Notes under the pieces: model-generated
Told to the model about the DNA's origin: nothing
The model's database searches: none
The model's input: only the letters and a program-made list of their open reading frames with translations
Assembly (NCBI GenBank): GCA_016839515.1
Contig: JAEOUE010000183.1
Coordinates: 626-24,625 of the forward strand
DNA: 24,000 nucleotides
Direction of reading: 5' to 3'
Origin: Candidatus Hodarchaeum mangrovi
Lineage (GTDB): Archaea > Asgardarchaeota > Heimdallarchaeia > Hodarchaeales > Hodarchaeaceae
Program-made: the position numbers and the translations under genes
In this document: one piece after another, positions 1,051-23,104 of the stretch
Numbering within the stretch: the first letter of the stretch is position 1
Layout: the number at the start of each line of letters is the position of its first letter

Positions 1051-2121
1051 TTAGCCTATTACTCTTTTCATGAGATGCATCGCATTTCCAGCTACGATTT
1101 TTTCTATCTCCTGGTCACTATAACCTCTAGAAACTAAACCACGGATGATATTTGGCCATTCCTCAGGACTCTCAATTCCTCTCATATACGGAGCATTTAA
1201 GGTTTGCCCTGTACGTTCCAAAAAGAAGATTGATTTAGCTGCTTGACGATGATATTCAACTTGATCCTCAAAAACATTATCTAATCCTATTGCACATTTA
1301 TCATTACCTATTAAATCAACAATATAGTCAATATGATTTAAGAGGTCATCAATACTTTGCACTGATTTATTGCTTAGCTGATTGGGAATAGCAGAGACTC
1401 CAGCAATCCCCTTTTTTTCAGCTAGAGCCATGAGCTCTTCGTCGGTCTTTAAGCGTTTACATTGAGGATTTAAGGCGCGTGCTCCCACATGATTGGCAAT
1501 TACTGGATCTTTGGAGACCTGAATTGTGTCAAGTGTTGTTTGGACTCCAACATGGGATAAATCAATTAGCATCCCAATCTTATTCATCTGTTCGACTAAA
1601 TTAATACCGAAATATGATAACCCTTCATTTGTTCTTTCACCACATCCATCGCCTGCATATGTCCGCGTATTGAATGTAAGCAGAGCCATCCTAATTCCAA
1701 GTCCATAGGCAACTTCTACATTTTCTAGATCTTTACCAAAAGTCTGAGGTTCAAGCTGAAACATTATAGCTATCTTCTTCTCCTTCTTAGCACGTCTAAA
1801 GTCGTCAGCTCTGAAAGCAACCATAAAATCTGGATGTTTTATTGCACGTTGCATTAGATATCCTAATTCGTTCATCGATTGCTGAAAGTTTTCGTGAATT
1901 CCTGCAATAGCCTCTACGAATCCAGTTACACCAGAATTCTTTATTCTGGGTACAATGAAGTCTTCATCAGGCAGGATGTGCGAATGAAGGTCAATTGTTA
2001 CTATTTTTTTGTGTAATTCCTCAGCCCGTTCTTCTTCTGCTTTATCAAGTTTAACTAAGCGTTCTTTCAGAGGAAGCTTCAAATATTCGTTTAATGGAAG
2101 CATATTATACATTCCTATCAA
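1051..2121 (-). CDS. M19 (renal/membrane dipeptidase family)-like metallohydrolase, paralogue A1
   Basis: Collinear by-eye match to human DPEP1 along the whole length. TIDLHSHIL aligns with IDGHNDLP. FQLEP aligns with the bridging Glu of GVEGG. GLSYFG..MNKIGMLIDLSHVG aligns with GLSPFG..LNRLGVLIDLAHVS. PVIANHVGAR aligns with PVIFSHSSAY. AIGLDNVF aligns with GFGGDFDG. GYSDQEIEKIVAGNAM aligns with NWTEAEVKGALADNLL. The track start is TTG 2121. ATG 2103 (MLPLNEYLKL, AGGA 9 nt upstream) fits the paralogue N-termini better. Confidence 0.85.
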   Translation of the reverse strand: MIGMYNMLPLNEYLKLPLKERLVKLDKAEEERAEELHKKIVTIDLHSHILPDEDFIVPRIKNSGVTGFVEAIAGIHENFQQSMNELGYLMQRAIKHPDFMVAFRADDFRRAKKEKKIAIMFQLEPQTFGKDLENVEVAYGLGIRMALLTFNTRTYAGDGCGERTNEGLSYFGINLVEQMNKIGMLIDLSHVGVQTTLDTIQVSKDPVIANHVGARALNPQCKRLKTDEELMALAEKKGIAGVSAIPNQLSNKSVQSIDDLLNHIDYIVDLIGNDKCAIGLDNVFEDQVEYHRQAAKSIFFLERTGQTLNAPYMRGIESPEEWPNIIRGLVSRGYSDQEIEKIVAGNAMHLMKRVIG

Positions 2122-2156
2122 TTTATATTGGGATAGGAGGAGAAAATAAATTCCTA

Positions 2157-3236
2157 CTACCCGATAACTTTTTCAATGATTTTTAGCGCGTTCCCCCCGA
2201 TTATTTTTTGAATCTCTTCATCAGAATATCCTTCTGAGACTAAACCACGAACTATATTTTTCCATTCATGTGGACCTTCTAAACCGAAGAGGAAATCACC
2301 TTTAAGCTGTATCCCAGATTTATCAAAATTCCTAGAAGCCGCATTTTTTCTATGACCAGCCACCTGATCACGAAATACGTTATCTAGACCAATAGCGACA
2401 TAATTGATACCGACTAGGTTTACACAGTGGTTAATATGTTTAAGATGGTCTTCGATTCCTTGATTAACATCGAAAGAGAGTTGATTAGGGATTCCACTTA
2501 TGCCAATTAACCCTTTTTTCTCTGCGATAGCCTGTAATTCCTCGTCTTCTCTTAAACGTTTACATGGTGGATTTAGAGCTCGTGCACCCGCATGATTAAA
2601 TACACAAGGGTCTTTTGAATAGTCAATAGCATCCAAGGATGTCTGTATTCCACAATGGCTCAAATCTATTAACATTCCAATTTTATTCATACGATCCACA
2701 ATTTCTAAACCAAAATAACTTAAGCCTATATTAGTTCTTTCAGCAATACCATCGCCAATATAATTTCTAGTATTGAAAGATAATAAAGCCATCCTTATCC
2801 CAAGTCCATATGCTATATCTACATTATCTAAGTTCTTTCCGAATGTATTGGGTTCTAATTGAAAAAGTACTGCCTGTTTCCCTTCTTCCTTTGCTTTCAG
2901 TATATCTTTAGCTTTATAAGCTGGCATCAGACTTGGTTCTTTCTCAGTGATAGCTAGATACCTGCCTAGAAGATTCATGGATTCAGAAAAATCCTCTGAA
3001 AGCGCTGGAACAGCTTCAAAACAGCCTTCAACGCCCATTTGATGAACTAGGTTCATTTTTTCCTCATTCCACTCGAAAATTACTGATCCATAGATATGTG
3101 TATGTAAATCAATTTTCAATGATCTTTTAAAAAGTTCCTCGGCTCGTTCAGCCTCTGATGGGCTCAATTTGATGTATTTTTCTTCTTGTGGAAGTTTTAG
3201 ATATTCTTCACGTGAAAAACCTCTGTTTGGCATCAA
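2157..3236 (-). CDS. M19-like metallohydrolase, paralogue B1
   Basis: Same M19 architecture: DLHTHI, FQLEP, LIDLSHCG, CVFNHAGAR, IGLDNVF, GYSDEEIQKIIGGNAL. Subtype-B markers: HTH, FEAVP, SHCGIQTSLDAI. The likely true start is ATG 3233, with GAGGT 8 nt upstream, rather than TTG 3236. Confidence 0.85.
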   Translation of the reverse strand: MMPNRGFSREEYLKLPQEEKYIKLSPSEAERAEELFKRSLKIDLHTHIYGSVIFEWNEEKMNLVHQMGVEGCFEAVPALSEDFSESMNLLGRYLAITEKEPSLMPAYKAKDILKAKEEGKQAVLFQLEPNTFGKNLDNVDIAYGLGIRMALLSFNTRNYIGDGIAERTNIGLSYFGLEIVDRMNKIGMLIDLSHCGIQTSLDAIDYSKDPCVFNHAGARALNPPCKRLREDEELQAIAEKKGLIGISGIPNQLSFDVNQGIEDHLKHINHCVNLVGINYVAIGLDNVFRDQVAGHRKNAASRNFDKSGIQLKGDFLFGLEGPHEWKNIVRGLVSEGYSDEEIQKIIGGNALKIIEKVIG

Positions 3237-3263
3237 TTTCTACCTCTTTTAAGTTCAAAAAGA

Positions 3264-4316
3264 TCAACCTATAACCCTTTCAATTATAGAAAGAGCATTT
3301 CCTGAGAGAATTTTTTCAATATTCTGATCACTGTATCCCCTTTGAACTAACCCCCGAGTGATATTAGCAAACTCCTCTGGATTTTCAATCCCATACATAT
3401 ACGGGGCATTTAATCCTTGTCCAATGTATGAAAGTTTAAAGATTTGTTTAGCTTGTTGACGATGGTAACCAACTTGGTCTCCGAATACATTATCAAGTCC
3501 AATAGCAACGTTATTAATACCAATCAGGTCAACCATATAATCAAGATGATTTAATAGGTCGTTTATCCCTTGTTCTTCTTCACTACTTAGTTGATTGGGA
3601 ATAGCAGAAACTCCTGCAATCCCACCTTTCTCAGCTATTGCTTTGAGTTCTTCATCAGTCTTTAACCGTTTACATTGAGGATGTAATGTGCGTGCTCCTA
3701 CATGGTTTGCAATAACTGGACTTTTAGATACTTCAACCGTATCCAGCGTAGTTTGGACACCTACATGCGAAAGATCGATCAAAATCCCAACCTTGTTCAT
3801 TCTATCAACCAAGTCTATACCAAAGTAAGACAATCCCTCATTGGTTCGCTCTCCACATCCATCACCTGCATAAGTTCGAGTGTTAAATGTAAGAAGAGCC
3901 ATTCTTACTCCAAATCCAAAAGCAAAATCTACATTGTCCAAGTTTTTACCAAATGTTTGAGGTTCTAATTGAAACATTACAGCCATTTTTCCCTCCTTTT
4001 TTGCTCGTTTGAAATCCTCCGCTCTCAAAGCGAGCATAAACTCTGGATGTTTATTCAATTTAGTTCTAAAAGACCCTAATATATTCATCGATTCTTGAAA
4101 ATCTTCAGTTACACCGGCAATTGCTTCAATCCAGCCGCAAACTCCTGAATTTTTGATCCGATCTAGGATAAAATACTTATCCATTAGAATATGAGAATGC
4201 ATATCTATTGAAATTAATTTTTTGTGTAATTCTTCGGCTCGTTCTTCCTCTACTTTGTCTAACTTAATAAAACGTTCTTTCAAGGGCAATTTCAAATATT
4301 CTTCTCTAGAAATCAA
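3264..4316 (-). CDS. M19-like metallohydrolase, paralogue A2
   Basis: Close paralogue of 1051-2121. Shared strings include EEERAEELHKK, HSHIL, MFQLEPQTFGK, RMALLTFNTRTYAGDGCGERTNEGLSYFG, LIDLSHVGVQTTLDT, PVIANHVGAR, PQCKRLKTDEEL and GIAGVSAIPNQLS. TTG start at 4316 with AAGGAGG about 9 nt upstream. Confidence 0.85.
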   Translation of the reverse strand: MISREEYLKLPLKERFIKLDKVEEERAEELHKKLISIDMHSHILMDKYFILDRIKNSGVCGWIEAIAGVTEDFQESMNILGSFRTKLNKHPEFMLALRAEDFKRAKKEGKMAVMFQLEPQTFGKNLDNVDFAFGFGVRMALLTFNTRTYAGDGCGERTNEGLSYFGIDLVDRMNKVGILIDLSHVGVQTTLDTVEVSKSPVIANHVGARTLHPQCKRLKTDEELKAIAEKGGIAGVSAIPNQLSSEEEQGINDLLNHLDYMVDLIGINNVAIGLDNVFGDQVGYHRQQAKQIFKLSYIGQGLNAPYMYGIENPEEFANITRGLVQRGYSDQNIEKILSGNALSIIERVIG

Positions 4317-4328
4317 AAATATTCCTCC

Positions 4329-5399
4329 TTAACCAACTACTTTCTCAAGTATTCGTAACGCATTTCCGCCAATTATTTTGTCTACCTCTTGGTCACTGTA
4401 TCCCCTCTTAATTAATCCCCTAATAATATTGGGCCAGTCACTCGGAGACTCTAGACCATAAATATAATCCGCTGCAAGGACTATCCCTGCACGCTCCAAG
4501 TTAACTGTTTTTTCAGCTGCCATTTTTCTATGGAAAGCTACTTGGTCATGAAATGTGTTATCTAAACCTATTCCTACATGATCAACTCCCACTAGATTCG
4601 CAATATATTCAATATGGTTTAAATGATCCTCAATACTCTGTTCGGGTTTGCTAGACAATTGGTTGGGAATAGCAGAGATACCAATCAGCCCACCCTTCTC
4701 TACCAATGCTTTTAATTCCTCATCGGTTCTTAATCGCCCAACTGGTTCATTTAAAGCTCGGGCTCCTGTATGATTGAACAGACATGGGTCTTTGGAATGG
4801 TCAATTGCGTCTAGTGCAGTTTGAACGCCACAATGGCTGAGATCAATCAATATTCCAGCGTTGTTCAAACGTTCTACTAACTCAAGGCCCAAGTAACTGA
4901 GTCCTGCATTGGTTTTTTCTCCACAACCGTCGCCAATGTATGTTCGTGTGTTAAAGGTAAGGAGAATCATTCTAAATCCTAGCCCATAGGCAACATCTAC
5001 CAGGTCGAGATTTCGTCTGCCACTCCATGGTTCCAGCTGATACAAAATAGCCTGTTTGTTTTCCTTTTTAGCCTTTTTGATGTCTGCAGCGGTAAAAGCA
5101 GACACTAATCCCGGTTCTTTCTCGACAATACTACGATAGCGTCCAATTATTGCTGTTGTCTCGGCAAAATCTTCATTTAAGCATGGAACAGCTTCAAAAC
5201 ATCCATCAATTCCAGAATTTTCGACTAATTTTCTAATATTCGCATTCCACTCGAAATGGATCGAACCAAATATGTGGGTATGCAAATCGACTTTAATACT
5301 CTTTGAGAAGAGTTCATCAGCTCTTTCTTTTTCAGAAGGACTGAGTTGAATAAATCTCTCTTCAGGACTAAGAGAGAGATACTTGTCTCTAGATATCAT
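4329..5399 (-). CDS. M19-like metallohydrolase, paralogue B2 (first gene of the minus-strand operon)
   Basis: Motifs DLHTHI, YQLEPWSGRRNLDL, LIDLSHCGVQTALDAI, CLFNHTGAR and IGLDNTF. ATG at 5399 with GAGGT 8 nt upstream. Only 12 nt separate it from the next gene. It is the closest relative of the plus-strand copy at 12025-13077. Confidence 0.88.
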   Translation of the reverse strand: MISRDKYLSLSPEERFIQLSPSEKERADELFSKSIKVDLHTHIFGSIHFEWNANIRKLVENSGIDGCFEAVPCLNEDFAETTAIIGRYRSIVEKEPGLVSAFTAADIKKAKKENKQAILYQLEPWSGRRNLDLVDVAYGLGFRMILLTFNTRTYIGDGCGEKTNAGLSYLGLELVERLNNAGILIDLSHCGVQTALDAIDHSKDPCLFNHTGARALNEPVGRLRTDEELKALVEKGGLIGISAIPNQLSSKPEQSIEDHLNHIEYIANLVGVDHVGIGLDNTFHDQVAFHRKMAAEKTVNLERAGIVLAADYIYGLESPSDWPNIIRGLIKRGYSDQEVDKIIGGNALRILEKVVG

Positions 5400-5602
5400 C
5401 CTTAAATACCTCTAATGTTCGATAATGTTGGCAAAATTTATTTTTTTTATTTTTTCTTAAATTTTTCCATTAATTACTTTATAAATCGAAAAGCCTTTAC
5501 GGAAAGTTTTTTACTTATAATGAAAATTAAATAACGTTCTCCCAATAATATCGATTTCTTTTGTTATGGAGGAATCACAAAAAATAAATTGGTGAAAACA
5601 AA
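5400..5602. promoter_or_regulatory. Divergent intergenic region, probable promoters for the dipeptidase operon (-) and the ABC importer (+)
   Basis: A 203-nt very AT-rich gap between divergently oriented first genes. It contains TTTATAAA (5478-5485) and TATAAT (5516-5521). GGTGA (5591-5595) lies 7 nt before the TTG start at 5603. No transcription start can be assigned from sequence alone. Confidence 0.4.
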
Positions 5603-7315
5603 TTGTTGTTCATAAAAAATAGAAAAAATAATCTATATCTAAAAATTGGAGTTTTGGCACTCCTTTTAGTCCTATCTTCGTTCTCAGCAATCCCTATCAG
5701 AGCTCAGGAAAAGTCACGATTTGAATTTAAGCTAATTTACGGTGCTGGACGTTATGCCATGGACAAACAGATAGTAGAAACTGTTCAATCCTTTTTGGCT
5801 GACATTGATGTCAAAATGACTATTGAATCTAGGGATTGGGCTTCCTTCTCTGCTGCTCAAAGAGAAAGTAACATAACAAAGTTAACGGAAGATTACCAAG
5901 CATGGTTCGTAGGTTTCGGGAACCCCTGGATGAATGCAGATGGTGCGCTTAAGAATTTCATCTCTCAAAGAGGATTAGAGCCTCTTTTCTACAATAATTC
6001 TTATTTCGATCAATTATTTGTCCAGTCTCGGAAAGAATCCGATGAAACAGAGCTAATGAAACTCTATAAAGAAATGAATGATATTGTTATGACAGATGCT
6101 CCATGGATTTTCCTTGCAATTGAACCTAATCTTCATGCTGCTCAAGGAGTCCAGGGCCTAACGACATGGCATGATGAGTCAGTAATCGTCTCTGATGCCT
6201 ATTCTACAACATCAAATGACACTTTAACTCTTTCTCTTGGAACAGAACCATCAAAGTTCGATCCACAACATACATCAGGAATGTCCAACCTTGGTATTAT
6301 TCGACTCGTAACAGAGACTCTTGTTAGTTTAGATCAGGAAACTGGGGATGTCGTACCAGTATTAGCAACTTCGTGGGAAACTGATAATGAAGCAGAGAAC
6401 TGGACGATCCATATTCGTCAAGGTGTAAAGTTTCATGACGGTAGTGAGTTAACAGCAGAAGATGTAAGATACACACTTTGGGATCGATTATCGTCTCCAG
6501 ATAGTGGTGCTTTAGCCCAAGCATCCTTCGGTCCTCCAAGTGGTCCTATAAAGAATATTACAGTTGTTGACACATATACAGTAAAAATCGAGACCATTGG
6601 ATTCGCAGCATTAATGCCTTTCTTCAATTATCAGCCCTCAGAGATTGTTTCGAAGGCAAAATGTTTAGAATTATATAGAGAAAATGAAACAGTGCCTGGA
6701 GAAGATTTCCAGACTGATCCTTCTGGTACGGGCCCATATAAGTTTGTCGATTGGGTTAAAGGGGATCATATTACATTGATACGGAATGAGAATTATTGGG
6801 GTGAAAAACCAGCTTTCCAGACAATTATCATGAAAAAGATTACAGACTCCACATCTCGAGTTTCTGCGTTACTTGCTGGTGATGTGAACTATATACATCA
6901 AGTCCCTACAACTTCCGTTGCTACATTAATAGCAGATCCTGATGTCTACCTTATCAAAGCCGCTGAAGTTCGTATGATGCATATTGGTTTGAATCTTGAT
7001 TTTGATATCTTCAAAAACAGGAAAGTAAGACAAGCTATAAACTATGCTGTTAATCAGACCAAAATGGTTGAAACAATTTACGAAGGTTACGGATCACCCA
7101 TGATAGATACTATGATGTCTCCCAGCTCTTACGGGGTTCAACAAGGTAATATTAGCTATTCACAAGACGTTGAAAAGGCTAAACAACTCCTAGATGAGGC
7201 TGGATATACCGTTCCTAAAGAATCTGTTCCTGGATTTGATTTTCAAATCATGTTGATCGGAGTGATCTTTGCTGCTGGCCTAGGAAAGCGATTCCATCGT
7301 AAGCTAAGGAAATAA
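5603..7315 (+). CDS. ABC transporter substrate-binding protein, family 5 (Dpp/Opp type), apparently circularly permuted, with an N-terminal signal peptide and a C-terminal TM anchor
   Basis: N-terminus is MLFIKNRKNNLYLKIGVLALLLVLSSFSAIPIRA|QE: a positive n-region, a hydrophobic core and an AxA-like cleavage site, with no lipobox Cys. Family-5 SBP motifs present: TLTLSLGTEPSKFDPQ, ATSWE..NWTIHIRQGVKFHDGSELTAEDV, GTGPYKFVDW, ENYWGEKP, VRQAINYAVN and EKAKQLLDEAGY. The usual C-terminal block (DWASF, FVGFGNPW, YNNSYFDQL, LYKEMNDIVMTDAPWIFLA) lies upstream of these motifs. The protein ends with FDFQIMLIGVIFAAGLGKRFHRKLRK, a hydrophobic stretch plus a basic tail. TTG start with GGTGA 7 nt upstream. 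Confidence 0.85.
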   Translation: MLFIKNRKNNLYLKIGVLALLLVLSSFSAIPIRAQEKSRFEFKLIYGAGRYAMDKQIVETVQSFLADIDVKMTIESRDWASFSAAQRESNITKLTEDYQAWFVGFGNPWMNADGALKNFISQRGLEPLFYNNSYFDQLFVQSRKESDETELMKLYKEMNDIVMTDAPWIFLAIEPNLHAAQGVQGLTTWHDESVIVSDAYSTTSNDTLTLSLGTEPSKFDPQHTSGMSNLGIIRLVTETLVSLDQETGDVVPVLATSWETDNEAENWTIHIRQGVKFHDGSELTAEDVRYTLWDRLSSPDSGALAQASFGPPSGPIKNITVVDTYTVKIETIGFAALMPFFNYQPSEIVSKAKCLELYRENETVPGEDFQTDPSGTGPYKFVDWVKGDHITLIRNENYWGEKPAFQTIIMKKITDSTSRVSALLAGDVNYIHQVPTTSVATLIADPDVYLIKAAEVRMMHIGLNLDFDIFKNRKVRQAINYAVNQTKMVETIYEGYGSPMIDTMMSPSSYGVQQGNISYSQDVEKAKQLLDEAGYTVPKESVPGFDFQIMLIGVIFAAGLGKRFHRKLRK

Positions 7316-7389
7316 ATCATAGATCAGCTAAACATTATTTGGACTATAAGTGATTCTCGATTAAACTATCGATTCATCGCCCTCTATTT

Positions 7390-7423
7390 GTTATCCCCAT
7401 TATTTTGGGGATAACAGTTTTTT
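7390..7423 (+). terminator. Intrinsic (hairpin + T-run) terminator/attenuator downstream of the SBP gene
   Basis: Perfect 9-bp stem GTTATCCCC (7390-7398) / GGGGATAAC (7407-7415). The 8-nt loop is ATTATTTT. The stem is followed by AG and TTTTTT (7418-7423). It lies 75 nt after the SBP stop codon. Confidence 0.7.
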
Positions 7424-7805
7424 ATTGAAAACCATTGAAAGGAACTATAGTATAACCAAGTTTATAGTTATCGTTCTAGTACTCAGCTCTCTTAAAAAAT
7501 CCATTTCTGCTCTAATAATATATGACATATAGCTTATGTAACTGAAAGTTTACATTAGTATAAATTTAGAGACTAGAAAAGGAATTGAATAAGAAAAATT
7601 AATAATTATAGAGGTATTATAAAGGATTCAAGCGAGAAAGAAGTAATATCTCTCTGAAAACACATTTAATCATTTAAATATTGATTAGGACCACAAATTG
7701 GTTTAAGTATTTTCTATTTTTCCCATATAAGGAGAAGAATACAAAAATAAATAATAAAACTAACAAAAGATAATCATTCGTAAGTAAGAATCGCAGGTAT
7801 ATCTA

Positions 7806-8852
7806 ATGGATGAAAATAAGCCATTATTAAGGGTGAAAGATCTTTCCACGCATTTTTTCACATATACTGGAGTAGTTAAGGCACTAGACGGTATAAACTT
7901 AGAGATAATGGGAAAGAATGATTCACTAGGTCTTGTGGGGGAGACAGGTTGTGGTAAAAGCGTCACAGCGTTATCGATCTTACAGCTGATTCCAAGACCT
8001 CCAGGACGTATCGTTAATGGTGAAGTTTGGTTCAATGGTGAAGATCTATTGAAGAAAAATGAGAGGTACATGCAACGAGAAATAAGAGGCAAAAGGATAT
8101 CTATGATATTTCAAGAGCCAATGACATCACTTAATCCTGTTATTCGTATAATAGATCAAATCACAGAGGCTATCTTACTTCATCCAGAAATAAATGGAAA
8201 TGAAACACCTTCTTTGTCTAAATATGATGATATGCCCAAATCTGAACGTGAAAAGATTAAAAAAGAAGCTAAAAAACATGCTATTGAACTACTTGATCTG
8301 ACAGGCATCCCAGATCCTGAGGAGGTAGCAGAAAGATACCCACATCAATTAAGCGGAGGAATGCGACAACGTGTGATGATTTCAATAGCTCTAGCATGTA
8401 ACCCACAGCTTCTCATTGCTGATGAACCCACGACATCACTTGATGTTACGATTCAAGCTCAAATATTATCTTTAATTAAGAAATTAAGGAAAAAATTTGG
8501 AATATCACTATTGCTTATTACTCATCATTTAGGTTTAATTTCCGCAATGTGTAACCAAGTTGCAGTGATGTATGCAGGTACAATCGTTGAATATACAGAC
8601 CTTAGATCCCTCTTTAGAAATCCGATTCATCCTTACACAAAAGGTTTATTAAAGTGTATCCCACGATTAGGAGGAGAGAGAGGAATAAAACTTAATACAA
8701 TTCCTGGGATGGTACCAGATCTAATAAATCCTCCAACAGGATGTAGATTCCACCCTCGTTGCAAAGAGAGGGGTTCAGAATGCGGAAAAAGTAAACCTAA
8801 GTTTATCGAAATAGATAAAGGGCACTTTGTTGCCTGCAACAAATATCATTAG
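7806..8852 (+). CDS. Oligopeptide/dipeptide ABC transporter ATP-binding protein (OppD/DppD type)
   Basis: Walker A GETGCGKS, signature LSGGMRQR and Walker B LLIADEPTTSLD. The Opp/Dpp-specific C-terminal extension is present (HPYTKGLL ... GCRFHPRC). ATG start. Confidence 0.92.
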   Translation: MDENKPLLRVKDLSTHFFTYTGVVKALDGINLEIMGKNDSLGLVGETGCGKSVTALSILQLIPRPPGRIVNGEVWFNGEDLLKKNERYMQREIRGKRISMIFQEPMTSLNPVIRIIDQITEAILLHPEINGNETPSLSKYDDMPKSEREKIKKEAKKHAIELLDLTGIPDPEEVAERYPHQLSGGMRQRVMISIALACNPQLLIADEPTTSLDVTIQAQILSLIKKLRKKFGISLLLITHHLGLISAMCNQVAVMYAGTIVEYTDLRSLFRNPIHPYTKGLLKCIPRLGGERGIKLNTIPGMVPDLINPPTGCRFHPRCKERGSECGKSKPKFIEIDKGHFVACNKYH

Positions 8853-8920: not shown

Positions 8921-9901
8921 TTGCAAGAAATCTTATTACAGGTTAGTCATTTAAAAACCTATTTTCCAATCAGGGCAGGAATCTTAAAAAGAACAGTGGG
9001 CTGGGTAAAAGCAGTTGATGATGTCAGCTTTGACATCAAAAAAGGGGAGATCTTAGGATTAGTAGGGGAGTCAGGGTGTGGAAAAACAACGGTTGGTAGG
9101 GTTATTCTGATGTTAGAGAATCCAACATCAGGAGAAATTTTATTCAATGGAAAAGATATAACGAAAATGAAGAAAGACGCATTGAGAAAGCATAGACGAC
9201 AAATGATGATGGTTTTTCAAGATCCTTTTTCTTCATTGAATCCTCGAATGACAGTGAAAAGAATAGTAGGGGAACCACTTATCATTAATAAGTATTGTTC
9301 TAAGCATGAGAGCAAAAACAGAATTGTAGACCTATTAGGAAAAGTAGGTTTAAAGGAAGAGCACCTCAATCGCTTTCCTCATGAGTTTTCAGGAGGACAA
9401 CGTCAACGGATCTGTGTAGCACGTGCGCTTGCCTTAAATCCAAGTTTAATAGTTCTTGATGAACCAACTTCGGCACTAGATGTTTCAGTTCAATCCCAAG
9501 TCCTCAATTTGTTCAAAGAACTATTATCAGAGTTCGGTCTTTCTTACTTATTTATCTCTCATGATCTGGCAGTAATCAAATATATGAGTGATAGGATATG
9601 TGTAATGTATGTTGGTAAAATAGTAGAACAAGGTTATACAGAAACGATCTACCAAGAACCAGCACACCCCTATACAAAGGCATTAATGTCGGCAATTTTA
9701 GAACCAAACCCTGAATATGAACAAGAACCCATTATACTCAAGGGAGATGTACCTAGTTCATCAAATCCTCCTTTAGGATGTAGATTCCATCCTCGTTGTT
9801 GGCTAGCAAAACCTGTATGTAGTGAAAAAGAACCACCTTCTGTTAATGTAGGAAATAAACATTTTGCTTCTTGTTGGGCTTTAGAAAAAGATTGGGATTG
9901 A
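8921..9901 (+). CDS. Oligopeptide/dipeptide ABC transporter ATP-binding protein (OppF/DppF type)
   Basis: Walker A GESGCGKTT, signature FSGGQRQR and Walker B LIVLDEPTSALD. C-terminal HPYTKALM ... GCRFHPRC. TTG start with GGTG 7 nt upstream. Confidence 0.92.
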   Translation: MQEILLQVSHLKTYFPIRAGILKRTVGWVKAVDDVSFDIKKGEILGLVGESGCGKTTVGRVILMLENPTSGEILFNGKDITKMKKDALRKHRRQMMMVFQDPFSSLNPRMTVKRIVGEPLIINKYCSKHESKNRIVDLLGKVGLKEEHLNRFPHEFSGGQRQRICVARALALNPSLIVLDEPTSALDVSVQSQVLNLFKELLSEFGLSYLFISHDLAVIKYMSDRICVMYVGKIVEQGYTETIYQEPAHPYTKALMSAILEPNPEYEQEPIILKGDVPSSSNPPLGCRFHPRCWLAKPVCSEKEPPSVNVGNKHFASCWALEKDWD

Positions 9902-9958: not shown

Positions 9959-10876
9959 TTGATTGAGAAAAATAATGTCCTAGAAAAAAAACCGAAGACT
10001 TCAAGGTTACCTCTGACATTGTATAAATTTCAGAAGAATAGGCGCGCATTATTTGGATTTATTGTTCTTGTGATAATTTTTATTATTGCTGTTTTTGCTT
10101 TAGATCCTTGGGGACACCCTTTATTAGCACCCTATAATCCATATGGACATCTTCCAACCTCAGAACGATTAGATCGCAGAGCTGAAAAGCCTTCTGCGCA
10201 ACATCTCTTAGGACTCGATGAACTTGGAAGGGATCTCCTTAGCAGAATTATGGTTGGCTGTCGAATCTCGATTACAATTGGATTCGTTTCTGTTTCTATT
10301 GCTCTAATTTTTGGTATGTTTATTGGATCCATTTCTGGTTATTTTGGTAAGTGGGTTGATCATCTTCTAATGCGGATTATAGATATTATGATGGCGTTTC
10401 CTGCATTTCTATTAGCACTAATGATCATTGCAATCTTAGGCCCATCACTACAAAATGCAATGGTTGCTATTGGTATTGCTTTAATACCAGTGTATGCACG
10501 ATTAACTCGAGGGCAAGTTATTTCAATAAAAGAAAACGATTATGTTGAAGCAGCAAGGATGGTGGGAGCTAGAGACTGGAGGATTATTTTATTGCATATT
10601 TTACCTAATGCCACTGCTCCTCTTATCGTCCAATCAACCCTCAATTTTGCTAGTGCAATACTCTCAGCAGCAGCACTAGGTTATTTAGGCCTTGGAGCCC
10701 AACCACCTACACCAGAATGGGGGGTCATGTTAAGTGATGGAAGACTATATTTATTGGCAGGAGCAACCCATTTATCTTTGTTTCCTGGACTTGCGATTAT
10801 GATTACTGTACTAGCTTTCAACCTAGTCGGAGATGGCCTCAGAGATGCCTTCGATCCAAGAATGGTGAGTGAATAA
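9959..10876 (+). CDS. ABC transporter permease (DppC/OppC type)
   Basis: N-terminal TM helix followed by an extracytoplasmic loop with HLLGLDELGRDLLSR. EAA-loop region is YVEAARMVGARDWRIILLHILPNATAPLIV. C-terminal GDGLRDAFDPR. Multiple TM helices. TTG start. Confidence 0.9.
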   Translation: MIEKNNVLEKKPKTSRLPLTLYKFQKNRRALFGFIVLVIIFIIAVFALDPWGHPLLAPYNPYGHLPTSERLDRRAEKPSAQHLLGLDELGRDLLSRIMVGCRISITIGFVSVSIALIFGMFIGSISGYFGKWVDHLLMRIIDIMMAFPAFLLALMIIAILGPSLQNAMVAIGIALIPVYARLTRGQVISIKENDYVEAARMVGARDWRIILLHILPNATAPLIVQSTLNFASAILSAAALGYLGLGAQPPTPEWGVMLSDGRLYLLAGATHLSLFPGLAIMITVLAFNLVGDGLRDAFDPRMVSE

Positions 10877-11889
10877 TGTCATTTGTATCTTTTTTGATTA
10901 GGAGGCTACTTTTAGTAATTCCAGTTCTTTTAGCAGTTTCTTTCATTGTTTTCTTCATGATTCGATTAATTCCTGGAGATCCTGCCCTCCTTCTTGTTCC
11001 GGAAGATGCTCCACCAGAGCAAGTTGATTACCTTCGTGAAAGATGGGGATTAAATGATCCAATTCATGAGCAATTTTTAAGGTTCTTAGTAAATATCTTA
11101 AACGGGGATCTTGGAAAGTCAATTCGGACTGGCCGACCCGTTATTGAAGAAATCCTACCACGATTTACCAACACAATATTTTTGGCAAGTTCGGCCTGTT
11201 TAATAGCTATACTTGTCGGCGGATTTGCAGGGGTTATTTCTAGTGTAAAGCCTTACTCGAAAATAGACAACTTTGCAATGATAGGGTCAATGGTAGGTGT
11301 ATCTGCTCCAGCTTTCTGGCTTGGCCTGATGATGATGTGGATATTAGCTGTTGAGCTAAATTTACTCCCCGCGGTTGGTACTGGCAATTATACTCACCTA
11401 TTTTCTCTTATTCCAGGATTAATTTATCCTCTGGGTTCAACACTATCAGAATTTCTCGATGAGCTATTAAATTGCATCAAGCATCTAGTTATGCCAGCGG
11501 TCACTCTTTCAGCATTTCTAATGGCTGTTATTGCACGACAAACCCGTTCTTCTATGTTAGAGGTCTTGACTAGTGATTATATCAGAACGGCACGAGCAAA
11601 AGGAGCACCTAGACCACGAGTAATTGTTTATCATGCATTAAAGAATGCAATGATTCCGGTTCTTACAGTAGCAGGAGTTGCATTTGGTTCTATGTTAGGA
11701 GGTTCCATTATTGTAGAGAAGGTATTTGAGTACAATGGCTTGGGACAATATATGATAGATTCAATTCACACTAGAGACTATCCTGTTATACAAGCAGTGA
11801 TTCTTTGGTATGCTCTTATCTTCACTGTAGTTAATCTAATTGTAGATGTCATTTACGGATGGTTAGATCCCCGAATAGTCTATGAGTAA
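10876..11889 (+). CDS. ABC transporter permease (DppB/OppB type)
   Basis: N-terminus is FLIRRLLLVIPVLLAVSFIVFFMIRLIPGDP. The conserved loop is YIRTARAKGAPRPRVIVYHALKNAMIPVLTV, and the C-terminus is DVIYGWLDPRI. The ATG overlaps the upstream stop by one base (TAATG at 10874-10878), which implies translational coupling. Confidence 0.9.
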   Translation: MSFVSFLIRRLLLVIPVLLAVSFIVFFMIRLIPGDPALLLVPEDAPPEQVDYLRERWGLNDPIHEQFLRFLVNILNGDLGKSIRTGRPVIEEILPRFTNTIFLASSACLIAILVGGFAGVISSVKPYSKIDNFAMIGSMVGVSAPAFWLGLMMMWILAVELNLLPAVGTGNYTHLFSLIPGLIYPLGSTLSEFLDELLNCIKHLVMPAVTLSAFLMAVIARQTRSSMLEVLTSDYIRTARAKGAPRPRVIVYHALKNAMIPVLTVAGVAFGSMLGGSIIVEKVFEYNGLGQYMIDSIHTRDYPVIQAVILWYALIFTVVNLIVDVIYGWLDPRIVYE

Positions 11890-12024: not shown

Positions 12025-13077
12025 TTGCAGCTCTCTCGTGAGGAGAGATTCATTAAATTAGATTCAGTGGAAATCGAACGTGTAAAAGAGATTTTCGAGA
12101 AAAATTATACTATCGATATGCATACTCACTTTTTTGGGAGCATTCACTTTAAATGGACACCAGAAATTAGTGAGAGAGTTAAACAGTCTGGGATTAATGC
12201 AGGCTTTGAAGCTGTGCCATGCCTGGCGGAAGATTTTACGGAAACTACGGCCATCATTGGCCAATATCGTAGCATCGTTGAGAAAGAACCAGGTTTAGTC
12301 TCAGCATTTACGGCCGCAGACATCAGAAAAGCGAAGAAGGAAGGCATACAGGCTATCTTATATCAGCTTGAGCCGTGGAGCGGCAGACGAAATCTCGACC
12401 TGGTAGATGTAGCCTATGGCTTAGGATTCCGAATGATCCTTCTCACATTTAATACTCGAACCTACATAGGCGACGGGTGTGCGGAAAAAACCAATGCAGG
12501 ACTTAGCTATTTGGGGTTGGAATTAGTAGAACGCCTGAATAGCGCTGGCATCCTGATTGATCTGAGTCATTGTGGGATCCAGACCTCACTGGATGCCATT
12601 GAGCATTCCAAAGATCCCTGCCTGTTTAATCATACTGGAGCCCGTGCTTTAAACCCACAAGTAAAACGATTAAGAACCGATGAGGAGCTACAAGCTATTA
12701 CTGAGAAGGGTGGGATGATTGGCATCTCTGCTATCCCTAATCAATTGTCTAGCAAACTCGAACAGAGTATTGAGGATCATTTGAATCATATTGATTATGT
12801 TGCCGATTTAGTAGGTACAAACCACATGATGATTGGCTTAGATAATGTATTCGATGACCAAGTTCAAAATCATAAAGAAATGGATAAAAAAAGTAAAGGT
12901 CTTAATCGGAAACGAGACGGTATGGTTTTAGTAGCACCATACATCTATGGATTAGAAGCACCAGATGAATGGGAAAATATAGTAAGAGGATTGGTAAAAC
13001 ATGGATATTCAGATTCAGACATCAAGAAAATCATTGGTGAAAACGCTCTTAAAATTATCAAACAAGTTGTAGGATAG
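12025..13077 (+). CDS. M19-like metallohydrolase, paralogue B3 (inverted relative to the other four)
   Basis: Motifs DMHTHF, YQLEPWSGRRNLDL, LIDLSHCGIQTSLDAI, CLFNHTGAR and IGLDNVF. It is near-identical to 4329-5399 over the central barrel. The start is uncertain. TTG 12025 is the first canonical start, but paralogue-conserved residues (..PRNEYL) continue in frame upstream to the stop at 11995-11997. Confidence 0.85.
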   Translation: MQLSREERFIKLDSVEIERVKEIFEKNYTIDMHTHFFGSIHFKWTPEISERVKQSGINAGFEAVPCLAEDFTETTAIIGQYRSIVEKEPGLVSAFTAADIRKAKKEGIQAILYQLEPWSGRRNLDLVDVAYGLGFRMILLTFNTRTYIGDGCAEKTNAGLSYLGLELVERLNSAGILIDLSHCGIQTSLDAIEHSKDPCLFNHTGARALNPQVKRLRTDEELQAITEKGGMIGISAIPNQLSSKLEQSIEDHLNHIDYVADLVGTNHMMIGLDNVFDDQVQNHKEMDKKSKGLNRKRDGMVLVAPYIYGLEAPDEWENIVRGLVKHGYSDSDIKKIIGENALKIIKQVVG

Positions 13078-14532: not shown

Positions 14533-15492
14533 TTGAAAACGCTAGTCGAAATTTTCGAATCAAACCTGAAACAGTGTGCTAATCTTCAGCCCAACGAATC
14601 AGTTTTAGTAATGTCGGATTTTGAACAAACCTCTGAGATTCCCTTATCCATAGTTAAGGCTATAGAAAAATTGCAGGCTAGACCATTATTGATTATAATG
14701 GAAAAAAATCTCTTGAAAGAGAAAGGGATATCGAAGTCTTATCAACAAGTAATGAATGAAGCTGATTTAATTGTAATATGTACTTCTGATTATTTCCCTG
14801 GAGAATCTCGCGTCATCGCTACACAAGCAGGTTCTCGAATTCTTTCAATGGTTAAAGCCGATGAGAATATGATTAGACGTTGTATAGATATCGATTATAA
14901 TGAACTCTCAAAGCTTACACGGAAAGTAGCTGATAGGTTCTCTGAAGCAAAAGAAATTAACATCAAGAGCGACTCTGGAACAGACATTTATTTTAGACCG
15001 AGTGGCAATAAAGCCTTTTATTTTGATGGCCTCTGTAGAGAAAAGGGAAAAATCACATCACATCCTTCAGGTGTAGTTGCTGTCGCTTTAGAAGAGAATC
15101 AAGCAGAAGGAACGTGGGTTATAAATGCTAGCGCTGCTAAACTAGGTTTAGTTGATCCACCAATAACTATTGAGGTGACTGAAGGTGTAGCAAAAATAGT
15201 AAGCAATTCAGAGCAAGCTGATCAATTCCAAAAGATTTTATCTGCTGGTGATGATAATTCATGGAAAATTTGTGAGGTTGGTTGTGGAACAAATGCTAGA
15301 GCTACCTACATTGGGGAATTGATTGAAGATGAAAGAGTACAAGGATCTGCTCATATAGGATTAGGAGGTAATACTCACTTTGGGGGAAAGATACAAAGCA
15401 TTTCTCATATTGATACATCTACGAGGAATCCTACTGTCATATTGGATGGATTCGCGATTATTTCCAAAGGAAATTTAAATCGCGAATTATGA
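14533..15492 (+). CDS. M29/AmpS (aminopeptidase T)-NicX superfamily metallohydrolase-like protein
   Basis: The C-terminal metal-site pattern is typical of the thermophilic-metalloprotease fold: CEVGCGTNARA...EDERVQGSAHIGLGGN...SISHIDTS (E, H and H-x-D). At 319 aa it is shorter than classical AmpS (~410 aa) and closer to NicX-sized members. TTG start with AGGAGA 9 nt upstream. Confidence 0.6.
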   Translation: MKTLVEIFESNLKQCANLQPNESVLVMSDFEQTSEIPLSIVKAIEKLQARPLLIIMEKNLLKEKGISKSYQQVMNEADLIVICTSDYFPGESRVIATQAGSRILSMVKADENMIRRCIDIDYNELSKLTRKVADRFSEAKEINIKSDSGTDIYFRPSGNKAFYFDGLCREKGKITSHPSGVVAVALEENQAEGTWVINASAAKLGLVDPPITIEVTEGVAKIVSNSEQADQFQKILSAGDDNSWKICEVGCGTNARATYIGELIEDERVQGSAHIGLGGNTHFGGKIQSISHIDTSTRNPTVILDGFAIISKGNLNREL

Positions 15493-20804: not shown

Positions 20805-21128
20805 TTATCTTGGTCGAAACCAATCGTTTTCAGGAACACCAAAAGAATTATTGCTAATGTTCTCGAGTTTAAATAGAAATAAATCAGTGAAAAATCTTCC
20901 TTCACCGAAATTACCAATTGTCTTAGCGATATAGCCTCCAAAGATTCTAATCGTTTTACTATAAGTGTTTACCTTATTGGATCTTCTTATTGGTATTTTG
21001 ATTTTTCTTAATTGTGTTAAGTTTAAGAACTTTCTCTTTATTCTCAATGAGAATAATAGAAGATAGAGTAATAGCTGATATAATGTAAAAACATTTAGCA
21101 CAAATTGAAGAAAACCTTGATTTATCAA
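20805..21128 (-). CDS. Hypothetical small protein (one N-terminal TM helix, basic middle); coding status uncertain
   Basis: ORF with a TTG start and no recognisable family or Shine-Dalgarno. The only support is that its stop lies 3 nt upstream of the Lrp ATG (TAA GAA ATG). Confidence 0.3.
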   Translation of the reverse strand: MINQGFLQFVLNVFTLYQLLLYLLLFSLRIKRKFLNLTQLRKIKIPIRRSNKVNTYSKTIRIFGGYIAKTIGNFGEGRFFTDLFLFKLENISNNSFGVPENDWFRPR

Positions 21129-21339: not shown

Positions 21340-21384
21340 CAAAAACAAAAAAATGGAGAGAAAATAATTCCCTCAAAAGGAATT
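21340..21384 (-). terminator. Candidate terminator of the ABC-2 operon
   Basis: On the minus strand, a 6-bp stem AATTCC / GGAATT (21379-21384 / 21366-21371) with a 7-nt loop overlaps the permease stop codon. It is followed by a T-rich tract (TATTTTCTCTCCATTTTTTTGTTTT). The stem is short. Confidence 0.4.
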
Positions 21385-23104
21385 AAACCAGATAGTCTCT
21401 CTTTGGAGTCCGTTGTGTAAGGATAAGAATGTAGAAGCCAAGAGTCAAAATTGTGCCAATAATAATTTCAGGGAGAATGTCAAATAAAGTACGCTTGTCC
21501 AAGATAATACTTATTGAATCGAAATAACCGAAGGGGGTGAAAAAACGCATCCATGAAAAATCGCTGCCAGGGAGAAAAGCAATGAAGATTATTAGGACAA
21601 AAAAGACCCATCCAATTATCAAAGTTTTTAGTACATGTTTCGAGGGAACTAGAAGGGCAAGAGAGAGGAAAAAAACGAAGATTACACTGTATCCCCAGAT
21701 GGAAACAAGATAACTTACCAATGTAGGCATAAAACCATGTTCAGATAAACGACCAAGCAGAACTTCCATCCCAAAGAGAGTTAAAATTTGAGCTGAACAG
21801 AGAATAACGAAATAGATGAGAGCTGCGATAGTCCTACTCAAGATTATATGTGTTCCAGTCTTCGGAAATACCCATGTAATTTCAGTGGTTCCATTTTTAT
21901 AATCACGTGTTATTATCCCATAAATGAACACCAGAAACAATGGTGCAATGATCATCCAAGTGAAACTATAGATTTCAAAGGCAAGGAATGTTTCTAACGG
22001 TCGTTCGACAATGGTTTCAGCGATCGTATTTCCAAATAGCAATGCTTCCATGAATGGCATATTGAAACTCTGTAAAAGCTCACTTACTTCTTCTGGCATA
22101 TACATTGTGATAACATAAAAGGCATAAAATATCATAAATATAAGATAGACAATGAAAAGGGTTGCATTTGCGTGAAGTTGGTCTCTAATCGCCGGATATT
22201 TCCAGCCTATCTTCCCAAGTATATTATCTATAGGTTTTCGAATATATGAGAGTGTACTAGATAATTTTGCCGATGATTTTTCTTCTTTCTCTTCTACAAT
22301 TGTCTGTTGTTGGACTCCTGACTCCAAGAAATTCTTTCGATAGAACAATATAATAGATACCAAAATTAAGATCAGAACAAGTCCAATTACCAATAGAATG
22401 AACTCCTCGTTCAAAGTTCCCATAATACTATTATTGACAACTTTAGCTTGAGAAAAAAGACTTAACTGACGAAGTGAATCAAGTTCACTTATCTGATTAG
22501 CGGACAGGTCTACAATAATAGAAAATACAATGTATAACCCACCAAGGGCATATCCAGTATTCTTGGAGAAGTTAATACTACACCCAAACGCTGTGATAAA
22601 TGTTATCGCTATTACGAGTAGAATGGCGAGAGAAAAACAAATAGTAATGTTTTGGGCAGCATCCCAAGCGTTATTGATATAAAGAAGGGCAAGAGAAACA
22701 ATATAACTAGGCAGGGAGATTAACCCAATTAAAATGATAACAACTAGTGAATTTTCTAAGAATGACTTTGTAAGCGATTTTGGTGTAGTGAAAAGAATTT
22801 CCTTTCCATCTTTTTCGTTAATTGGTAACAAATTGCTTCCAAGAAATACCCCTGCAACTGGTAGATATAAAGACAAACTGAAACCACAGAAAAAGATTAA
22901 CCACAGAGAAAAACCAGGATTATCAGTTGGAAAATCACCAAGAAATTTCATCAATTGAATGAACTCTACCAAAGCATTTTCACCAGGGTAAAACATTGCT
23001 ATACCAGTAATTAATAGAACATAAAGAAAGATAGCTAATCCAACAACAGTTCGATGACGATAACTATGAAGATAAAACCGCTGAATCGTTTTTGAAAGGC
23101 TCAT
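21383..23104 (-). CDS. ABC-2-type transporter permease, fused double-module (about 6+6 TM)
   Basis: 573 aa. Two hydrophobic halves are separated by a hydrophilic linker (QQQTIVEEKEEKSSAKLSS...). The ATG overlaps the upstream ATPase stop (ATGA at 23104-23101). Confidence 0.75.
   Translation of the reverse strand: MSLSKTIQRFYLHSYRHRTVVGLAIFLYVLLITGIAMFYPGENALVEFIQLMKFLGDFPTDNPGFSLWLIFFCGFSLSLYLPVAGVFLGSNLLPINEKDGKEILFTTPKSLTKSFLENSLVVIILIGLISLPSYIVSLALLYINNAWDAAQNITICFSLAILLVIAITFITAFGCSINFSKNTGYALGGLYIVFSIIVDLSANQISELDSLRQLSLFSQAKVVNNSIMGTLNEEFILLVIGLVLILILVSIILFYRKNFLESGVQQQTIVEEKEEKSSAKLSSTLSYIRKPIDNILGKIGWKYPAIRDQLHANATLFIVYLIFMIFYAFYVITMYMPEEVSELLQSFNMPFMEALLFGNTIAETIVERPLETFLAFEIYSFTWMIIAPLFLVFIYGIITRDYKNGTTEITWVFPKTGTHIILSRTIAALIYFVILCSAQILTLFGMEVLLGRLSEHGFMPTLVSYLVSIWGYSVIFVFFLSLALLVPSKHVLKTLIIGWVFFVLIIFIAFLPGSDFSWMRFFTPFGYFDSISIILDKRTLFDILPEIIIGTILTLGFYILILTQRTPKRDYLV

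Follow-up and report, generated by a model that had tools for sequence, protein, structure and literature searches.

Evidence for a naturally circularly permuted cluster C substrate-binding protein in Asgard archaea that retains its ancestral export and anchor signals

Few proteins of bacteria and archaea are as well studied or as numerous as the cluster C substrate-binding proteins (SBPs), which include DppA, OppA, NikA and GsiB. To our knowledge, as far as the literature was searched, their chain topology has so far been treated as invariant. Described here is a family-5 (cluster C) SBP gene of an ATP-binding cassette (ABC) transport system, located at 5603–7315 on the forward strand of a 24 000-nucleotide stretch of DNA from Candidatus Hodarchaeum mangrovi (GenBank assembly GCA_016839515.1, contig JAEOUE010000183.1, positions 626–24 625), the whole of which is referred to below as the window. 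We consider it highly probable that this gene encodes a genuine, functional, circularly permuted SBP in which the ancestral export and anchor signals have been retained.

Canonical members of the cluster, such as Escherichia coli DppA, GsiB/YliB and NikA and Bacillus subtilis AppA (structures 1dpp, 1uqw, 1zlq and 1xoc), share with the window protein their Pfam family, their predicted fold, their OppBCDF partners and the carboxylate-clamp arginine (R50 in the window protein, R383 in DppA). They differ in the order of the chain. If the N-terminal two-thirds of a canonical protein are called block A and the C-terminal third block B, canonical proteins read A–B and have their termini in lobe 1, whereas the window protein reads B–A and is predicted to have its termini in lobe 2. 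No PDB chain aligns collinearly with the window protein over more than ∼400 columns.

A naturally permuted ABC SBP has been described in Treponema pallidum, where TpMglB-2 (Tp0684), a glucose-binding protein assigned to 'Type Ic / Cluster Bc', keeps the bilobed fold and ligand binding and has homologues that are mostly membrane-tethered (PMC4990184). The window protein resembles it in being a permuted ABC SBP with a predicted membrane tether, a property common to all four permuted clades presented below. TpMglB-2 differs in belonging to cluster B rather than cluster C, in its cut site and in crossing the hinge a fourth time; no sequence homology can be detected between its permuted part and canonical MglB, whereas the blocks of the window protein are 67% identical to those of a canonical orthologue and their origin is traceable. 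The comparison is an analogy only, all sequence and fold matches of the window protein being to cluster C. In biosensor work, permuted forms of periplasmic binding proteins (PBPs, as these proteins were formerly called) are commonly engineered. Beyond TpMglB-2 and these engineered proteins, no naturally permuted cluster C or family-5 SBP was found in the full-text literature, for which journal coverage was partial. The supposition of the original prediction, which was made from the sequence of the window, that no such protein had been described agrees with this search, but at least three more permuted clades are present in public data.

The gene is a single open reading frame (ORF) of 570 amino acids, present in the ORF listing as originally quoted, which begins with a TTG codon, as do its orthologues at loci L001 and L003, and ends with a stop codon at 7313–7315. 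All of its parts lie on the forward strand. A signal peptide of the Sec type (residues 1–35, ending ..AIPIRAQ; 5603–5707), which would be cleaved after Q35, is joined through the residues EKS (junction 1, residues 36–38; 5708–5716) to block B (residues 39–201, RFEF...SDAYS; 5717–6205). A linker of four residues, TTSN (junction 2, residues 202–205; 6206–6217), then bridges the former C-terminus and the former mature N-terminus, and is followed by block A (residues 206–535, DTLTL...LLDEAGY; 6218–7207). From the end of block A a tether, TVPKES (junction 3, residues 536–541; 7208–7225), leads to a C-terminal sorting or anchor signal (residues 542–570; 7226–7312), made up of VPGF, a hydrophobic helix and the basic tail KRFHRKLRK. 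The linker that had been proposed to join the old termini, STTSN at about 6200–6220, corresponds closely to junction 2, and the positions originally given for F40 (5720) and F545 (7235) are both correct.

The assignment of blocks A and B to the two parts of canonical SBPs was made from alignments with Pfam and the PDB. The window protein scored 281.1 bits against PF00496 (SBP_bac_5; cut-off 32.4) in two stretches. When the blocks were scanned separately, residues 48–122 of block B matched positions 295–363 of the 368 in the hidden Markov model (HMM), and residues 250–535 of block A matched positions 2–278, so that two matches with swapped HMM ranges were obtained and no single collinear one. 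P0007, a canonical protein, gave one collinear stretch covering positions 2–364. The collinear order of the family, with the N-terminal two-thirds preceding the C-terminal third, is thus not found in the window protein. The same exchange was seen with phmmer against PDB chains, among which 104 of family 5 were matched at E ≤ 0.001: residues 201–536 of the query aligned with 39–360 of 5u4o and residues 55–169 with 376–487 of the same chain, while residues 40–188 aligned with 322–467 of 6hlx. A canonical reference was also divided into seven segments; the window protein has exactly one copy of each, arranged as S6-S7-S1-S2-S3-S4-S5. The protein accordingly has the general properties of a natural circular permutant, namely segments present once, a cyclic shift of their order, a linker (TTSN) between the old termini and a cut in a former loop. 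In canonical proteins this loop varies in length, from 3 residues in P0008 to 9 in P0006 and ∼17 in P0125. The permuted family-5 SBP, with every segment present exactly once, that had been proposed from the sequence is borne out by the swapped ranges in both Pfam and PDB alignments and by the segment comparison.

A homologue search recovered five full-length proteins with the B–A order, of 77–100% identity. These are the window protein itself (P0001, from NCBI), an identical protein from JGI (P0002, 100%), P0003 (82%, on six contigs of up to 308 kb), P0004 (81%, from Logan) and P0005 (77%, from NCBI); P0281–P0283 are additional permuted members from Asgard archaea. Permuted loci were found at L001, L002 and L003 and, among GTDB species representatives, at L006–L008, and syntenic permuted loci occur in assemblies GCA_048940395.1, GCA_048938455.1 and GCA_048882505.1. 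The hosts had been labelled by their submitters as Promethearchaeota or as Thor-, Heimdall- or Hermodarchaeota, and all are Asgard archaea. The permuted loci have a common gene order, in which divergent M19 dipeptidase genes are followed by the SBP gene, oppD, oppF, oppC, oppB, a further M19 gene, a PrpD-family gene and a NicX-like gene. Orthologues with the same block order thus exist within a syntenic Opp operon, and junction 2 is conserved in all the permuted orthologues as S-x-TSN-D.

Ratios of non-synonymous to synonymous substitution rates (dN/dS) were calculated by the Nei–Gojobori method for pairs with unsaturated dS. Between the window and L001 the ratio was 0.079 for block A and 0.042 for block B, and between L003 and L007 it was 0.039 and 0.052 respectively. 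Values of 0.04–0.08 in both blocks indicate that the gene is maintained and functional. These results also bear on the suggestion that the gene is an artefact, created when two normal SBP genes in tandem were collapsed or chimerically joined during assembly. Tandem SBP genes with the block pattern ABAB do exist in other genomes, for example at L038 and L050, and would provide raw material for such a mis-join. Nevertheless, five diverged sequences from independent NCBI metagenome-assembled genomes, a JGI metagenome and Logan share the B–A order, the linker and the ends; strong purifying selection acts on the gene, which forms a single ORF; and neither a stop codon nor an internal signal peptide is present at the B-to-A junction. 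The likelihood of an artefact is therefore negligible.

After the permuted proteins, the next-best matches were P0006 (locus L004, Logan SRR14739665) and P0007 (locus L005, JGI 3300041086), which are canonical positional orthologues. They cover 62% of the query in one high-scoring segment pair and have the order signal peptide, block A, block B and tail. Upstream of P0006, the M19 gene shares 87% identity with its counterpart in the window; the OppD fragment found downstream shares 78%, a figure equalled by the permuted locus L001. In the phylogenetic tree the permuted Asgard clade was recovered with 100% bootstrap support, as sister to P0006/P0007, also at 100%. The identity of the window protein to P0006/P0007 is 66.5–66.8% in block A and 67.3–68.5% in block B, and this equal divergence implies that both blocks derive from one ancestral gene. 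Fusions of SBP units are known (P0124, P0125 and P0192), and could suggest that blocks B and A came from two different, fused SBP paralogues and that the protein is a chimera rather than a permutant. Such an origin is very improbable, given that both blocks are nearest to P0006/P0007 at equal divergence, that these two proteins occupy the orthologous locus and that all seven reference segments are present exactly once.

Comparison with the canonical orthologues also altered the interpretation of the two ends of the permuted protein, which had originally been taken for new acquisitions. The signal peptide of the window protein aligns with that of P0007 (LYLKIGVLALLLVL and LYLKISAVTLLLIL respectively, both ending ..AQ), and the upstream spacer and signal-peptide coding DNA are collinear between the permuted loci and canonical L004/L005. 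At the C-terminus, P0006 and P0007 carry a homologous tripartite tail, with PGF, a hydrophobic helix and basic residues, as in the window protein. Both the signal peptide and the anchor at the C-terminus are therefore inherited, and only the mature region between them is permuted. The sequence FDFQIML near the C-terminus, formerly interpreted as a relic of the strand FEFKLIY, lies within the anchor helix and reads FETPIVL or FEFPLVM in orthologues. The resemblance at the DNA level between TTTGAATTT and TTTGATTTT is at chance level: TTTGAWTTT occurs six times in the window where 3.8 ± 1.8 occurrences are expected, and 16 of 100 shuffled sequences reached six.

In the structure prediction (AlphaFold), the signal peptide formed a helix at residues 11–26 with a low predicted local distance difference test (pLDDT) score, and the anchor region formed a helix at 545–568, in which the tripartite layout of VPGF, helix and KRFHRKLRK was visible. 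An identity with the PGF-CTERM signal was considered and rejected, as TIGR04126 gave no match in the window tail and the best tail among its relatives reached only E = 4.6 and 7 bits (cut-off 24.5). Tails of relatives approached two sorting-signal models of NCBIfam that are specific to Asgard archaea, without reaching their cut-offs; that of P0003 scored 22.1 bits with Heimdall-CTERM (NF045529, cut-off 24) and those of P0006/P0007 scored 15.9–17.4 bits with Loki-CTERM (NF033507, cut-off 19.9). With these scores below the cut-offs and the tail of the window protein unmatched, the feature is named here only as an Asgard-type anchor of motif, transmembrane helix and basic residues. A search for Loki-CTERM and Heimdall-CTERM found neither model mentioned in the literature covered. 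The tail of the Thor type could represent a variant not yet described.

The fold of the window protein was predicted with AlphaFold2 from two alignments, an ordinary MAFFT alignment (A1) and one in which the canonical homologues had been cut into separate A and B fragments (A2). With A1, block A was predicted at a pLDDT of ∼95 and block B at 30–58, with a predicted TM-score (pTM) of 0.63. In this alignment the B blocks of canonical proteins run past the end of the query, leaving only four rows over block B, which accounts for the low pLDDT; the A1 run was accordingly rejected as evidence against the fold. With A2, the mean pLDDT was 86.7 and pTM 0.82, block B being predicted at 86–98, block A at ∼90–98 and the linker at ∼81–87. 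The top matches of a Foldseek search against the PDB were all cluster C SBPs (DppA, YliB/GsiB, NikZ, AccA and GbpA), at a probability of 1.00, and their alignments spanned 340–400 columns with a TM-score of ∼0.5, which corresponds to block A alone. No solved structure with the chain order of the window protein was found by Foldseek in the PDB. The A2 model is consistent with an ordinary two-lobe Venus-flytrap fold of altered connectivity, in which the packing of block B is a prediction supported by pTM. The two runs also show that structure prediction from ordinary alignments fails silently on permuted proteins, which profile-based annotation likewise under-models.

An exhaustive phmmer search of 1.84 billion representative sequences, with a threshold of E ≤ 0.001, gave 61,574 members of the family. 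Two further proteins among the 150 best matches, P0208 and P0135, matched across the B-to-A junction; 3 of these 150 unbiased representatives are permuted. Of 499 normal-length proteins that were gathered in all, 25 are permuted and 471 canonical. P0208, P0284 and P0285 are bacterial lipoproteins in which the signal peptide is followed by block B and then by block A, and their cut falls in the loop that is cut in the window protein. P0208 (locus L086, 1501–3048, on a 4.1-kb contig) is 29% identical to the window protein, and its group is nested, with 100% bootstrap support, in canonical SBPs of the Nitrospinota/Nitrospirota type to which it is 50–54% identical. A third permuted lineage is represented by P0458 (locus L090, 163–1704), which is again cut at this loop. 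P0458 is 86–90% identical to the canonical P0462 of Dethiobacter alkaliphilus (GCA_025989135.1; locus L091, 8001–9554), has a near-identical lipoprotein signal peptide and lies in a perfectly syntenic operon. The two loci are ∼90% identical in DNA sequence and differ solely in the chain order of the SBP; identity is lower in block B (84.9%) than in block A (90.5%) or the flanks (90%).

The P0135 clade (L087, 2543–4159, L088 and L089; P0403–P0413 and P0418) comprises ∼13 clusters from soda-lake and other alkaline samples. In these proteins the cut is ∼60 residues earlier, after ..IGFN, the chain ends ..IYIGFNLQPQ and the order of segments is S4'-S5-S6-S7-S1-S2-S3. On three soda-lake contigs a P0135-type protein is the sole SBP of a complete OppBCDF operon with an M20 peptidase gene. 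Canonical relatives are up to 83% identical; since monophyly of the clade was unsupported in the neighbour-joining tree (0% bootstrap), it is provisionally counted as one event. All these clades resemble the window protein in having kept the signal peptide ahead of a permuted mature domain, and P0208 and P0458 are likewise cut after the ..LL.EAG helix. They differ in being bacterial lipoproteins tethered at the N-terminus, without a C-terminal anchor, and their identity to the window protein is 29–33%. As the permuted clades are nested among their own canonical relatives, permutation has arisen in this family in at least four independent events, three of them at the same loop.

Models of permutation by gene duplication were reportedly proposed by Jeltsch in 1999 for DNA methyltransferases, and are said to have been treated by Weiner and Bornberg-Bauer in 2006. 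The intermediate that such a model requires has natural parallels in single-chain A–B–A–B fusions of cluster C SBPs, which have short B-to-A linkers. They include P0125 (1016 amino acids, 26 cluster members, Methanophagales), P0124 (1137 amino acids, with a repeated N-terminal domain ahead of each unit) and P0192 (1202 amino acids); a longer protein, P0126 (2754 amino acids), contains four matched stretches.

Breakpoints of the process survive in the young Dethiobacter pair, where blastn showed that the permuted locus consists of upstream DNA with the signal peptide, then block B, block A and downstream DNA, each 85–91% identical to its canonical counterpart. Where block B meets block A, codon 32 of the mature N-terminus comes immediately after the final sense codon of the canonical gene (..TGG ATT GAA); from codon 32 the permuted gene reads GAT GAA GAT CAG GAT TTG and the canonical gene GAT GCA GCT CAG GAT TTG. 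The new C-terminus, VISE, ending at a stop codon, is read from what is the 3' untranslated region of the canonical locus. A tandem duplication and the later loss of the first block A and the second block B would leave such breakpoints, and P0411 and P0416 show the same junction logic. The Asgard junction, ..SDAYS-TTSND-TLTLSLG, similarly matches the canonical ends ..SGAYL and EPSDD-TVVIALG.

For the Asgard lineage, by analogy, the most economical route would have been one internal tandem duplication (..A–B–A–B..), creating the B-to-A junction, after which two in-frame deletions would have removed the first block A and the second block B, the signal peptide and anchor staying in place; the one difference from Dethiobacter would be that the second deletion remained in frame and kept the anchor. 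The redundant copies would have been lost internally, and not by truncation of the ends, because the export signal and the anchor had to be kept. The duplication step of the scheme originally put forward, a tandem duplication with double truncation, is thus supported, but the truncation step is replaced by internal loss with the ends retained. The same may be said in relation to the general model, with which the present case shares the existence of A–B–A–B forms (P0125) and a B-to-A junction made of a native C-terminus and a native mature N-terminus, and from which it differs in internal in-frame deletions as opposed to terminal truncation. A tblastn search (word size 2, all E > 0.7) of the spacers on either side of the SBP gene, in the window as well as in L001 and L003, revealed no relic of a lost block.

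The SBP gene is followed directly, as is a feature of the family, by genes for Opp/Dpp-type permeases and for ATPases with an oligo_HPY domain. On the forward strand of the window these are an OppD-like ATPase (7806–8852), an OppF-like ATPase (8921–9901), an OppC-like permease (9959–10876) and an OppB-like permease (10876–11889), and this order is repeated in the orthologous loci L001, L002 and L003. In every permuted Asgard locus the permuted protein is the sole SBP of the complete OppDFCB operon. Four tandem paralogues of M19 (renal-type) dipeptidase (1051–5399, reverse strand) are divergent from the SBP gene and a fifth (12025–13077, forward strand) follows the operon; the M19 block is conserved in L001, L003 and canonical L004. 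The expansion points to an enlarged dipeptide-hydrolysing capacity tied to the importer. Six M19 genes lie upstream in L003, and M19 paralogues are 51–87% identical across loci.

In E. coli DppA, the ends of the dipeptide are bound through salt bridges by R383 and D436, residues that likewise bind the scoop loop of DppB (PMC12136057). In the alignment used for comparison, the DppA sequence was validated solely by the presence of R at 383 and D at 436. In this alignment R50, in block B, is the counterpart of R383; the arginine is conserved in all its Asgard and Bacillota-type proteins, and P0208 has glutamine at the position. The column of D436 is occupied by Pro108 in the permuted proteins and in their canonical sisters, the alignment of the loop being uncertain. 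The permuted proteins share the loop GFGNPWMNADGALKNF, residue for residue, with canonical P0006/P0007, which indicates that the permutation has left the binding determinants untouched. Judging from the genomic context, the ligand is probably a short peptide.

From these features a mechanism may be proposed. The chain would be exported by means of its ancestral N-terminal Sec signal peptide, and the mature protein would be held at the cell surface by the ancestral tail of motif, transmembrane helix and basic residues. The mature chain would begin in lobe 2 (domain III) with the strand RFEFKLIY, pass through block B, TTSN and block A and end at the helix ..KAKQLLDEAGY, which in canonical proteins lies just ahead of the strand where the chain now begins. 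With both chain ends in a surface loop of lobe 2, and not in lobe 1, the membrane tether would have moved as well. The SBP presumably captures short peptides and hands them, by a docking that is assumed from the operon, to the OppBC permease and OppDF ATPases, and dipeptides taken up in this way would be hydrolysed by the products of the five neighbouring M19 genes.

A role outside transport, either as a decaying gene or as one repurposed for a sensor or surface protein, is suggested by the absence of a conserved equivalent of DppA D436 and by the situation of P0208, which adjoins a sigma-54 response regulator gene with no ABC genes on its short contig. The dN/dS values of 0.04–0.08, the position of the protein as sole SBP of a conserved, complete OppDFCB operon at each permuted locus, and a binding loop with the same sequence in the canonical sisters all argue against such a role, as does the finding that the permuted P0135 and P0458 are likewise the sole SBPs of complete Opp operons. 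The probability that the permuted protein has left transport is consequently small.

Several observations nevertheless weigh against a genuine, functional permutant with inherited ends. The window's own tail matched no curated C-terminal sorting model among those tested. Foldseek superposed block A alone, leaving pTM and pLDDT to suggest how block B packs, and the first AlphaFold run left block B unfolded, a result explained by an alignment depth of four. The proline in the D436 column implies that the ligand may not be a classical dipeptide. The Asgard loci yielded neither a B–A–B or A–B–A intermediate nor any relic of a lost copy. Finally, the SBP has diverged between the window and canonical L004 by 33%, compared with 22% for OppD and 13% for M19, a comparison that extends over 195 amino acids of OppD and one M19 gene and is too small to be decisive; among the members of the permuted clade it is OppD that has diverged further (22–31%, against 14–19% for the SBP). 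The excess divergence of the SBP reflects either a burst of change on the branch of the permutation or an older split with later replacement of the allele at this locus, and both readings fit the figures.

The permutation may have arisen by chance through duplication and deletion, been selectively neutral and have no functional consequence, the fold tolerating it because the old termini are adjacent and the cut falls in a variable surface loop. In favour of this reading, the residues of the binding site have not changed, canonical proteins differ in the length of the cut loop, and sister lineages have the canonical or the permuted form in the same operon. Three independent events at the same loop speak against neutrality, as does the membrane tethering of all four permuted clades by a lipobox or a C-terminal anchor, so that the point of tethering moves every time, and so does the excess divergence of the Asgard SBP relative to its flanking genes. 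None of these is decisive, and we regard neutrality as an even prospect. A more specific proposal, that the permutation is a recurrent and selected shift of the membrane tether from lobe 1 to a particular loop of lobe 2 beside the ligand-clamping arginine, is offered tentatively and is probably incorrect. Were it correct, the shift would change the orientation of the tethered receptor towards the transporter, or delivery to it, and the loop after the ..KAK.LL.EAG helix would be a preferred point of re-entry. It would also explain the cut shared by Asgard archaea, the Nitrospinota/Nitrospirota-related clade and Dethiobacter, and the faster divergence of the Asgard SBP, compared with its operon neighbours, after the event.

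A permuted topology of cluster C SBPs is, on these data, viable, conserved, under strong purifying selection and has arisen at least four times. The significance of the permuted proteins rests on this recurrence, on the shared cut site, on the retained targeting signals and on the pairs of canonical and permuted orthologues. Syntenic pairs that differ in the chain order of the SBP (the window and L004/L005; L090 and L091) are natural experiments, which could show the effect of connectivity and tether position on folding, hinge dynamics, affinity and docking to the transporter. The natural cut sites also point to permissive positions for engineered permuted SBP biosensors. The DNA breakpoints in Dethiobacter are unusually direct evidence for duplication followed by deletion and show the constraint imposed by the export and anchoring signals.

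The divergent intergenic region between the M19 and SBP genes (5400–5602) contains T-rich blocks common to permuted and canonical loci. One, TTTTTTATTTTTT, was found in all six aligned loci (the window, L001, L003, L004, L005 and L007), and a second, CGGAAAGTTTTTTA, in four of the six (the window, L001, L004 and L005); the conserved blocks are possibly shared archaeal promoter elements. The spacer between the SBP gene and oppD (7316–7805) is unusually long, at 490 bp, compared with 348–469 bp in other permuted loci and 156–291 bp in canonical ones. A scan of the window with Rfam, this spacer included, gave no family.

Towards the end of the window, an ORF of 572 amino acids (21383–23104, reverse strand) has no Pfam match and overlaps by 4 nucleotides an upstream ABC ATPase gene (23101–24000) that extends beyond the window end. 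An ORF of 106 amino acids (20805–21128, reverse strand) also has no Pfam match. The same is true of an ORF of 319 amino acids at 14533–15492 on the forward strand, the homologue of which at L001 has a precomputed match to PF26233 (NicX).

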